Shown: positions 1,647 through 51,200 of the stretch, in pieces
Position numbering within the stretch: position 1 is the stretch's first letter
Layout: each line of letters opens with the position of its first letter
Assembly (NCBI GenBank): GCA_038087875.1
Contig: CM075988.1
Span: 23,128,001 to 23,192,000 of the forward strand
Direction: 5' to 3'
DNA from: Malacoraja senta
Lineage: Eukaryota
Length of the DNA: 64,000 nt
Position numbers and translations under genes: made by a program
Notes under the pieces: model-generated
Told to the model about the DNA's origin: nothing
Seen by the model: the letters and a program-made list of their open reading frames with translations, nothing else
Database searches by the model: none

Positions 1647-1933
1647 CTGGCAGTTCCCTGCGAAGTTGCTCTGCAATGGTTGCGGACTGTAAGACATGAC
1701 CGAGGGGGGCCCCAGCATTGTGTAGCTGGGACAGGCAGCTTGCATGCACATGTCTTGCATGTACGGTGAGTTGACGGCATCGTGCGAGGGGTAACTGGGG
1801 CAAGGTGACCACTGTGACACCGGCTGTAGGCTGGCAGAGGATGGCTGAGGCAGCCATGTAGTGTGAAAGGTTCCCTCCTCAGCAGGTTGCACTGGTGATG
1901 AAGCAGCATCTGTCTCATGGAACACCGGATGTC
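1647..1933 (-). CDS. POU2AF1: POU2AF1 coding exon 4
   Basis: Acceptor ttatcttcag|GA; GHPVFHETDAA...EEGTFHTTWLPQPSSASLQPVSQWSPCPSYPSHDAVNSPYMQDMCMQAACPSYTMLGPPSVMSYSPQPLQSNFAGNCQ|gtagga aligns to human WLSQPTPATLQPLAPW...HEAVSCPYSADMYVQPVCPSYTVVGPSSVLTYAS. 287 nt. Confidence 0.93.
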
Positions 1934-6085: not shown

Positions 6086-6128
6086 CTATTTGTGAATAGC
6101 ATGTCATTGAGAGATGTGGCAAAACCAT
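6086..6128 (-). CDS. POU2AF1: POU2AF1 coding exon 3 (43 nt, MVLPHLSMTCYSQI-G)
   Basis: tttatgccaagcag|ATGGTTTTGCCACAT...CAAATAG|gtaaga; peptide aligns to human VVLPHQPLATYTTVG. Too short for the ORF track; read by hand. Confidence 0.85.
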
Positions 6129-6330
6129 CTGCTTGGCATAAACAAAAATACACAATTAGAAAAATGATAATATATGTTGTTGCTGTAAATACAAGATATT
6201 TTGATCTGAGGAATGCGATTAGTAATTTTATTTTGTAGGTAGGAACTACAGATGCTGGTTTACACTGAAGACAGACACAAAATGCTGGAGTACCTCAGCT
6301 GGACAGGCAGCATCTCTGGATAGAAGGAAT

Positions 6331-6365
6331 GGGTGACGTTTCGGGTCGAGACCCTTCTTCAGACT
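6331..6365 (-). ncRNA. Minimal hammerhead-ribozyme-like core in a Penelope-derived repeat (intron 2, sense to POU2AF1)
   Basis: agt-CTGAAGA-a-GGGT-ctcg-ACCC-GAAAC-GTC-accc on the minus strand. Confidence 0.6.
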
Positions 6366-7436
6366 GAGAGTCGGGGGAGAGGGAGACACAAAGATAAGGA
6401 AGGGTGAAAATGAGACATCAAAATAGATGCGGGCCAAGGAGATTGTAGAATAGATCGTTGTTAGCTCGGAGCAGGTGACAGAAATAAAACAATATTTAAT
6501 CTGTAACTATCTGGCTATGTTTGCTATGTTCTGTAACTGGCAATGTCAGGTCTGTGCCGCAGAGTCTGAAGGTTGTTGTATCCAATGTTGGTCACCATAC
6601 TTTATAGAAAGGGCGTGAACTTCAAGAGATGTCGGAGAAGGTTTCACTGGGATAGTCCCCGTGATAGACGTTTCTGTTGCAAGGCTAGATTGGAAAAGCT
6701 GGGATTGTTCTCTTCAGTCTGTGGAATTCTCTGCCTCAGAGGGCGGTGGAGGCAGGTTCTCTGGATGCTTTCAAGAGGGAGCTAGATAGGGCTCTTAAAA
6801 ATAGCGGAGTCAGGGGATATGGGGAGAAGGCAGGAACGGGGTACTGATTGGGGATGATCAGCCATGATCACATTGAATGGCGGTGCTGGCTCCAAGGGCC
6901 GAATGGCCTACTCCTGCACCTATTGTCTATTGTCTATTGTCTATCACAGAGGTTGAGAAGAGAATTGTCCGTGGCGTTTGAGATCATGATGGGTTTTGAC
7001 ATGGATAGATGGTCCCTGTAGCACATGTTCCAAGGACCAGAGGTCGCAGATGTATGACTGTAGTGGGGTGATGGTGGAAAGTTGTTTTCACACTGGAGTC
7101 CCCAATGACCGGTGGTGTGTCTCAGGAGTCATAGAGTGGAACAGCGTGGAAACTGGCCCATCTGCTCAACGTTCCCACACCTGCCAACATGTCCCATCTA
7201 CACTAGTCCCACCTGCCTGCGTTTGGCCCATATCCCTCCAAACCTGTCCTATCCATGCACCTGTTTAACTGTTTCTTAACTGTTGGGATAGTCCCAGCCT
7301 CAACTGCCTCCTCTGGCAGCTCGTTCCATACACCCACCACCATTTGTGTGAAATATTTACCCCCTCAGATTCCTATTATACAGTGCCGGGTCCATTGGTG
7401 TTTGACACCTACATCAAGAATTTGGTTGGGAGCGAG

Positions 7437-7746
7437 TAAAACCCCTGTCCCACGGTACGAGTTCATTCCAAGAGCTCTCCCGAGTTTGCCCTGATTCAAA
7501 CTCGGAGATTTACGGTAATGGCCACTCGTCGGTACTCGGGGCTCTCGTGGACATTGTTCAACATGTTGAAAAATCTTCACGAGTCTTCCCCTGCTTACCT
7601 GCCGTTAGCGTTACGAGCCGCTAAGAGACGTCCCCGAGCTCCGACGTACCCGCTACGTTCATTCTCCGTGCTTACCACGAGTTTGATTTTTTTTAAAACT
7701 CGGGAGAGCTCTTGGAATGAACTTGTACCGTGGGACAGGGCTTTAA
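7437..7746. mobile_element. MITE with cctgtcccac termini
   Basis: ccctgtcccacggtac...gtaccgtgggacaggg. Confidence 0.8.
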
Positions 7747-7933
7747 GGCATGGTTAGTAAGTTTGCTGATGCACTGCAATAGGTGGTGTCATGGATAGTG
7801 CAAGAGGTCATTAAGAATTACAGAGGGATCTTGATCAGCTGGGTTCACGGAATGGCAAATGGATTTCAATTCACATATGTGCGATGAATTACATTTTGGG
7901 AAGTAAAACCAAGGTAGGACCTTTCGATATTAT

Positions 7934-8225
7934 AGTTTAGTTTAATTTACTTTAGTTTAGAAATACAGCGTAGAAACAAGCCCTTCGGCCCACCGAGTCT
8001 GCGCCGACCAGCGATCACCCACACACTTGTTCTACCTTACTCACTAGGGACAATTTACAGATGCCCAATTGACCTACAAACCTGCGCATCTTTGGAATGT
8101 GGGAGGAAACCGGAGCACCCGGAGAAAACCCACGCGGTCACAGGGAGAACGCACAAACTCTGTGCAGACAGCATCCGTTGTCTGGATCGAACCCGGGTCC
8201 CCGGCGCTGTAAGGCTGCAACTGCT
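7934..8225 (-). mobile_element. V-SINE (HE1-like) in intron 2
   Basis: Same consensus on the minus strand; (TTTAG)n tail on plus. Confidence 0.85.
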
Positions 8226-8318
8226 ACATCAGCGAGCGGTAATTTCATGATACGTGCCTGATTATAGGCTGAAAACAAACCGGCTGCACATATTGACAAA
8301 TACTACTAAAATGCTCAC

Positions 8319-8441
8319 CGAGCTGCTGGGAGTTTGTATTAGTGTTCTCAACGTTCTTTCTCTTTCTTTTAAGCAGTTCCTTTACGGGATCTTTCACACG
8401 GACACCTAAATAAGGTCGCTGCTGTGACTGGTCAGAAGAAG
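8319..8441 (-). CDS. POU2AF1: POU2AF1 coding exon 2 with the OCA (POU-binding) motif
   Basis: Acceptor cttttccag|; translates (P)SSDQSQQRPYLGVRVKDPVKELLKRKRKNVENT..., matching human RPYQGVRVKEPVKELLRRKR; donor TCG|GTGAGC. 123 nt. Confidence 0.95.
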
Positions 8442-9085
8442 CTGGAAAAGTAGGAAGCAATAAATTTTGAGTGAACATTTTTAAATATCATGTGCTGATA
8501 AGCCCATGAACACACTCTGCAATGTGTAGAGATGGCCAACAACCTCTTTGAGCAAATCATTTTTTCCTCTCTGTACTGTATTTTGTTAGACCAGATATTG
8601 TCAGGATATTCAACCGTGTTCCTTTATGATCCCTCGTGTTGTTAAGAAGACAGGTGGACACTGTCGGAGACACAAGAGACTGCAGATGCTGAATCAGAAG
8701 CAACAAACTAATGGCCGGAGGAACTCAGCAGTGGCGAGCAAGAATTAATATAGAGGGATACAGCATGGGAACAGGCCCTTCAGTCCAACTTGCCTACACC
8801 GACCAACATGTCCCATCTACACTAGTCCCACCTGCCTGCATTTGGCCCAGATCCTTTCTAAACCTGTCTATCCATGTAAGCTGTCTAATTGCTTATTTAA
8901 TGTTGCAATAGCCCATGCCTCATTTACCTCCTCGAGCAGCTCAGTTCATGCACCAGCCACCCTTTGTTGAAAAAGTTACCCTTCAGTCACCTAAAACCTT
9001 TTTCCTCCTTCACCTTAAACCTATGCCCTCTAGTTCGCGTTTATCCTACTCTGGGCAAGAGATTCTGAGTGTGCTCCCGAACTAT

Positions 9086-50573: not shown

Positions 50574-50601
50574 GTTTTTGCCAGTGCACCTTCTGTGCCA
50601 T
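50574..50601 (-). CDS. POU2AF1: POU2AF1 coding exon 1 (MAQKVHWQK + 1 nt)
   Basis: Minus strand reads tatACC-ATG-GCA-CAG-AAG-GTG-CAC-TGG-CAA-AAA-C|GTGAGT: strong Kozak, an xWQK motif like the MLWQK N-terminus of human OCA-B, canonical donor, phase 1 matching exon 2. Confidence 0.85.
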
Positions 50602-51200
50602 GGTATAGTCTCTCTCATCTCTCTCTGGTGCAGACAGTGTTGACATTGCTAAGTTCTTACAAAAGTGCTTCAGTGGAAGATGTGTACAAGCTACTGAATG
50701 AGCAGGGTGCTAAGACTTGAGGTCCCCGCTCTGCAGCTGATGTCATCGTGCTATGCTCCAATCTCTCCTCTTGTGGCCACCATTGTTTTTTCCTCAGCGC
50801 AACGTAATCAGAGCAAGAGGCAGAGCAGCACACGTTGCTCACAGCCGCCTCTGGAAGATATTATGCAGAGAGGGTAATCGTGTGCGATGGGTTTAATGAC
50901 TAGCCCCTGCCTTTAAACCGAAGGTTTGCTTCTCGTTTACAAAATTCGGCAAACTAATGATCGCGTAGCGACGGCGAGTTAAAGACATACTTAAAGGAAG
51001 CACCTGCAGAGTCTTACTGAAACAGTACATCCTGTTCTAAAGATATTTTCCTGTCTTAGATTTGGAAAGAAAAGGGACATCGAGTCTGTAACGCAATGTA
51101 TAAAAAGAGTCTTATTCGTGTTTCTGGGCTATTCCCATCTTTTATTACCTTTAGATTTACCAGATCATTTAATATGATTTTGCCTTTGTAGAAGAACAAT
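50602..51200 (-). promoter_or_regulatory. POU2AF1: Putative POU2AF1 5'UTR and proximal promoter
   Basis: Repeat-free stretch with raised CpG directly upstream of exon 1; contains TTTAAA (50912-50917) and CRE/ATF-like TGATGTCA (50738-50745). TSS not determined. Confidence 0.5.

Follow-up and report, generated by a model that had tools for sequence, protein, structure and literature searches.

A phase clash in POU2AF1 of the skate Malacoraja senta is very likely a one-base assembly error in a gene predicted to continue into an ankyrin domain

The phase clash between exons 2 and 3 of POU2AF1 in Malacoraja senta is present in the assembly only and not in the contigs of sequencing runs. The extra A that causes it is very likely a consensus error: exon 2 is likely to be 122 nt long, exon 3 to be a normal in-frame exon, and POU2AF1 to be intact. 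Coordinates, except those given on G000:C12, refer to the window, that is, the whole 64,000-nt stretch of DNA analysed (GCA_038087875.1, CM075988.1:23,128,001-23,192,000), in which POU2AF1 lies on the minus strand. Matches to repeats in the local 154 kb cover approximately 52% of the window, and an Rfam scan of the window gave no matches.

In a six-frame motif scan of the window, the OCA motif was located near 8406 and the exon 3 peptide at 6125, with exon 4 starting at 1934. Exon 2 (8319..8441, minus strand) carries the OCA motif between an AG acceptor and the donor TCG/GTGAGC and matches Pfam PF09310 with an E value of 6.7e-10; for exon 4 (1647..1933, minus strand; 287 nt, phase 1 to 0), the E value is 2.1e-25. 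The PF09310 scores of exons 2, 4, and 5 are 34.8, 89, and 76.6 bits, respectively, at a curated cut-off of 25.7. The OCA motif of exon 2 matches OCA-B (peptide of PDB 1CQT, E 1.1e-6) better than POU2AF2 (0.0059) or POU2AF3 (0.031). The gene is thus like POU2AF1 (OCA-B, OBF-1, or BOB.1; PF09310, 1CQT) in the OCA motif of exon 2 and in having PF09310 on exons 2, 4, and 5. According to PMC13043367 and PMC12807641, the OCA motif holds the POU domain of OCT1/2 in a clamp on octamer DNA, and by homology to 1CQT the skate motif would bind in the same manner. A POU2AF2-like OCA exon (G000:C12:22975694-22975780, plus strand; L008) lies ~110 kb past the 3' end and matches the 9PFP peptide by eye. This neighbour recalls the human cluster described in PMC13043367.

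Coding exon 1 (50574..50646, minus strand) sits 42 kb upstream of exon 2. It comprises 73 nt from an upstream ATG, exits in phase 1 at the donor GTGAGT, and is identical at 24 of 24 positions with residues 1-24 of Amblyraja P0003 (tblastn). The upstream in-frame ATG (50646-50602, minus strand) is placed 15 residues before the usual start and is conserved in sharks and rays; for mammals, an OCA-B isoform from an upstream start codon is mentioned in a passage of PMC13043367. In intron 1, the segment 20317-20227 resembles the N-terminus of Rhinoraja P0004 in two frames (E 4e-4), and the first exon of that model seems to be spurious. Intron 2 contains a 49-bp inverted repeat (96%; 7439-7487 and 7696-7744) around ~200 bp, an arrangement that resembles a small DNA transposon.

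As assembled, exon 2 has 123 nt and is in phase 1 at both ends, entering in phase 1 because this is the exit phase of exon 1. Exon 3 (6086..6128, minus strand) is an ordinary coding exon of 43 nt, phase 0 to 1, and its peptide MVLPH is readable from phase 0 only. It has a tandem acceptor (6131 and 6128, both phase 0), and the upstream AG adds one Gln in frame. Joining of exons 1 to 4 as assembled gives 85 residues and a stop at codon 86, 268 nt ahead of the end of exon 4. When exon 3 is left out of the assembled sequence, the frame from exon 2 to exon 4 is open and the OCA motif is kept. For the assembly, the exon boundaries, the exit phase of exon 1, and the translations of the joined exons therefore bear out what the first-pass annotation had stated: a 123-nt exon 2 running from phase 1 to phase 1, an exon 3 that fits phase 0 only with both tandem acceptors in phase 0, and an early stop with exon 3 but an open frame from exon 2 to exon 4 without it.

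A run search for 8150-8600 matched 24 runs, one of which (X1) contained most of the words (0.71); none of the 24 is recorded as an RNA run. Four of the 24 (X1, X2, X4, and X5; one per organism) were compared with the assembly over 8250-8600 as contigs, not as raw reads; such contigs drop rare variants and can lose alleles. One T of the TTT at 8333..8335 (plus strand; AAA on the coding strand) is missing in all four, at depths of 30 (X1), 21 (X2), 3.9 (X4), and 19 (X5). This run, one base too long in the assembly, is the source of the phase clash. The contigs of all four runs give a 122-nt exon 2, the outcome that the first-pass annotation had assigned to an assembly artefact, and the base missing from them is the same A whose removal it had predicted would restore the structure. 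Two more sites differ nearby. The GG at 8453..8454 (plus strand), in the acceptor region of intron 1, is one base too long, a base being left out in all four runs. At 8552..8553 (plus strand), also in intron 1, the assembly has a single C where the contigs have CC, the C being added behind 8552 in three of the four (X1, X4, and X5); in X2 other changes lie directly beside this site. The discrepancies at 8453-8454 and 8552-8553 suggest a poorly polished patch.

X1 is represented by one 465-nt contig (depth 30) that spans all 351 nt compared, with no substitutions and three one-base gaps. All three differences are run-length changes in short homopolymers (8333, 8453, and 8552) within 220 nt. The state of X1 is common to organisms B, C, and D at 8333 (3/3) and 8453 (3/3) and to two of the three at 8552; the window is the odd one out. 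We infer that X1 comes from this species or individual; if it is the assembled individual, it does not represent an independent animal. Because the three run-length differences are clustered, substitutions are absent, and the reads appear to hold the ancestral state, a consensus error rather than an allele is indicated. The errors presumably stem from under-polished long reads. The pattern is like that of long-read homopolymer indel errors that mimic frameshifts: one-base changes clustered in short runs, no substitutions, and absence from the contigs; no difference from such errors was found. In a bacterial study (PMC8812927), errors of homopolymer length are described as the most frequent type to persist in long-read sequence.

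A private frameshift allele would instead be a real additional A on one or both chromosomes, with an 85-aa product whose transcript would likely undergo nonsense-mediated decay. Such a null allele would be coherent, since from its stop to the next junction there are 268 nt; moreover, X1 may come from another animal, and an allele could have been dropped from the contigs. However, one haplotype would have to carry three one-base homopolymer changes within 220 nt while being free of substitutions over 351 nt, and all three changes point away from the state common to the other species. In real haplotypes, substitutions are usually several times more numerous than indels. A search of the assembly (G000) for a second haplotype copy found none, and one copy of the stretch was found. 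In X2, two allelic contigs are seen at 8428-8544, and in X1 none; heterozygosity can therefore show in such data. An allele of this kind is thus considered improbable. The first-pass annotation had regarded an assembly or allelic indel as most parsimonious, and the run contigs support this with the indel as an assembly error.

The orthologues are consistent with the consensus error. A search for homologues of exon 4 found seven proteins among 29 candidates, the best matches being skate POU2AF1 proteins of 97, 95, and 86% identity. When the first 275 residues of the sawfish protein were used as the query of a word-based search, 34 of 1656 candidates with lengths of 296-944 aa were found to match. 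In 21 of the 23 OCA-motif homologues from both searches, the exon 3 peptide stands straight after exon 2. The first-pass annotation had proposed a comparison of exon 2 across cartilaginous fish, and in nine of the 11 cartilaginous-fish homologues the exon 3 peptide follows directly. It had also given NTTPSSS/MVLPH as the expected structure; the Amblyraja protein has this junction, its exon 2 ending in TPSSS as predicted. The peptide is missing in two of the 23 models, Leucoraja erinacea P0002, in which exon 4 is flanked by translated intron sequence on either side, and Callorhinchus P0012. Both are likely to be model errors, and skipping of exon 3 might occur in some species.

These two models could also be cited for the option that exon 3 was converted in this lineage from a coding exon into a poison exon, so that inclusion would cause a frameshift and skipping would give the working protein; the in-frame joining of exons 2 and 4 in the assembly, with the OCA motif kept, fits this as well. 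However, the additional base is missing in the closest run and in three other organisms, and exon 3 is identical at 15 of 15 positions in its normal frame with residues 66-80 of sawfish P0005. Furthermore, with a 122-nt exon 2, it is the skipping of the 43-nt exon 3 that breaks the frame, which is the reverse of the heading under which the clash was first reported. The likeness to poison exons coupled to nonsense-mediated decay is confined to the arithmetic of the assembly, in which inclusion leads to an early stop; the difference is that the skate stop hangs on a base missing from the run contigs. This option, raised in the first-pass annotation, thus does not stand, and its probability seems very slight.

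Apart from the donor at 8319, there are four GT sites in phase 0 within exon 2 or shortly after it (8353, 8290, 8281, and 8254), and the frame is open up to each. They would permit the 123-nt exon to be real, with splicing by another phase-0 donor, the best candidate being 8281, or by a micro-exon. However, with a scoring matrix of approximate frequencies, the four sites score from -7.7 to -1.0, under every real donor of the gene: 8319 scores +2.6, and the 11 donors of the gene range from +0.9 to +7.2. CTC G/GTGAGC can thus be retained as the only strong donor of exon 2, as had been claimed, with four weaker phase-0 sites beside it. In addition, beyond 8305 the sequence of the other organisms no longer follows that of the window, so that the DNA there behaves as intron, and the extra peptide is found in none of the 23 homologues. 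Splicing of this kind can practically be discounted.

Under the consensus error, a 122-nt exon 2 would give phases of 1, 0, 1, and 0 across exons 1-4, and exon 3 would be a plain coding exon. Once the extra base is removed, the frame through exons 2, 3, and 4 is open, and the junction aligns with the orthologues without a gap. The clash is then without biological weight, but it would lead annotation to report a key B-cell gene as disrupted or to omit exon 3. Any single-base indel in this stretch of the assembly should be backed by reads.

The region 90 kb past the low end of the window was fetched, and exon 5 and seven more exons were found there, all on the minus strand of G000:C12. Exon 5 (23124547-23124276) encodes part of PF09310. 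The ankyrin domain is encoded by exon 6 (23112012-23111907), exon 7 (23110011-23109865), exon 8 (23094526-23094475), exon 9 (23091694-23091525), exon 10 (23089659-23089540), exon 11 (23086862-23086698), and exon 12 (23084328-23084263); relative to sawfish, exon 10 has one additional in-frame codon. The seven intact exons 6-12 span G000:C12:23112012-23084263 (minus strand; L004, L009, and L010), beyond the window. With the extra base removed, the 12 coding exons, which have AG/GT ends and compatible phases, are predicted to form one frame of 540 aa. This model is identical with sawfish P0005 at 473 of 539 positions (223/266 in the OCA-B part and 250/273 in the ankyrin part), and its first 266 residues are identical with Amblyraja P0003 at 256 positions. 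Because the identity to sawfish is higher in the tail than in the OCA-B part, the ankyrin tail seems to be under selection. The predicted protein would consist of the OCA motif, a Pro/Ser-rich middle region, and an ankyrin domain like those of IkB-NS and IkB-zeta; judged from its sequence, this domain would bind NF-kB. Mammalian OCA-B has ~256 aa and is not known to carry ankyrin repeats; the seven further intact ankyrin-domain exons distinguish the skate gene from it. Mammalian OCA-B is given as 34-35 kDa in part of PMC13043367.

A short form of 271 aa would arise by read-through of the exon 5 donor. The three skate database models (P0002-P0004) are all of the short form and end at 271-303 aa because this donor is read through. 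The same read-through is seen in the bird model P0023. Its tail resembles that of mammalian OCA-B. Of the proteins with an OCA motif, 19 of 23 extend into the ankyrin domain and four read through. Since the same read-through end occurs in three skate models and one bird model, the long and short forms may represent an old alternative choice. As for poly(A) signals, ATTAAA lies 528 nt after the read-through stop of exon 5 and the first AATAAA ~3 kb after the exon 12 stop; these signals gave no choice between the two forms.

The best PDB match of the sawfish orthologue is IkB-zeta 9BOR, which aligns in one stretch over residues 242-525 (E 2.4e-69). Pfam Ank families were found on the orthologues, with whose sawfish member the skate domain shares the identity given above (250/273). 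All three Asp residues of the D-x-D-x-D-T motif in the first repeat align with the 9BOR match. Asp-451 of mouse IkB-zeta is probably one of these residues. In a passage of PMC11393961, Asp-451 is reported to be needed for p50 binding. The skate product would have an IkB-zeta-like design, and its membership in the nuclear IkB group is a prediction from sequence. It shares with IkB-zeta (NFKBIZ) the two-part arrangement of OCA motif and ankyrin repeats, the OCA motif of IkB-zeta being already known (parts of PMC12807641 and PMC11393961). The differences are that IkB-zeta forms a separate clade in the ankyrin tree, that sharks have an IkB-zeta of their own (P0151), and that the middle region of the skate protein is PF09310.

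A full HMMER search listed 150 matches, mostly long generic ankyrin proteins, among which 20 IkB-like ones were identified. The ankyrin tree contains 31 domains: that of the skate model, those of 11 out of the 19 long OCA-B proteins, and those of 19 out of the 20 IkB-like proteins; BCL3 and the classical IkBs are not among them. With a midpoint root, all 12 OCA-B rows fall into one clade (99/95), which groups with the IkB-NS rows (100/100) apart from the IkB-zeta rows; the monophyly of IkB-NS has a support of 53/75. OCA-B is thus like IkB-NS, or IkB-delta (NFKBID), in that the ankyrin domains group together, and the databases name several of the long OCA-B proteins 'NF-kappa-B inhibitor delta-like'. 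It differs in that Narcine has both a long OCA-B (P0008) and an IkB-delta-like protein (P0053), and in that IkB-NS proteins have at most half of the OCA motif, with a score that is not significant. We also considered whether the ankyrin exons are NFKBID wrongly joined to POU2AF1. This was rejected: the OCA-B domains form their own clade (99/95), its order broadly follows that of the species, and the separate IkB-delta-like protein of Narcine is further against it.

The half OCA motif, its helical half, was seen by eye near the N-terminus of the IkB-delta-type proteins P0045, P0053, P0054, P0056, P0057, P0071, and P0074. An OCA profile, built from the analysed proteins, was scanned against 61 candidates. 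For the half motif in IkB-NS proteins it gave E values of 0.07-6 among these 61, which are not significant. The profile matched IkB-zeta proteins and the lamprey IkB-zeta-like protein P0165 (E 8e-4 among 61 candidates). Because the lamprey protein has both parts, the combination of OCA motif and ankyrin repeats seems to be older than jawed vertebrates.

The long form is widespread in the databases. Four of the seven exon 4 matches, of 539-559 aa and named 'NF-kappa-B inhibitor delta-like', have PF09310 followed by ankyrin repeats. Ankyrin families are found on 32 of the 34 matches of the sawfish N-terminal search, from chimaera, sharks, rays, reedfish, alligator, turtle, and birds; 13 of these 32 are partial bird proteins. 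No mammal, amphibian, or teleost is among the 34 matches of this word-based search, whose length window bars short forms, so that it does not show where the tail was lost. The titles and abstract starts that were searched contain no description of ankyrin repeats on OCA-B, and a mention in Alpsoy et al. 2024 (Mol Cell) or Wu et al. 2022 (Nature) is possible. A 2026 review of OCA-B discusses shark and fish orthologues, and 'ankyrin' does not occur in its text (PMC13043367). The long models are already in RefSeq and UniRef, often misnamed IkB-delta; they are under-recognised rather than unseen.

Mammalian OCA-B is likely to have lost the ankyrin domain. With moderate confidence, we propose that OCA-B was originally a fourth atypical nuclear IkB and the sister of IkB-NS, with an OCA motif and an ankyrin domain that together could have linked OCT1/2 with NF-kB in B cells. 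The long form would have been kept in sharks, rays, skates, chimaera, reedfish, crocodilians, turtles, and birds. Mammalian OCA-B would then be a stump produced by read-through at the donor of exon 5, and the acidic activation patch in its C-terminal region would be what remains of the beginning of ankyrin repeat 1; such a patch, close to the C-terminus of OCA-B, is described in PMC13043367. If OCA-B outside mammals combines an OCA motif with ankyrin repeats as IkB-zeta does, the POU coactivators and the nuclear IkBs would be one family. The OCA motif of IkB-zeta would also have a simple origin, and in chicken B cells one could test directly whether the long form connects OCT2 with NF-kB.
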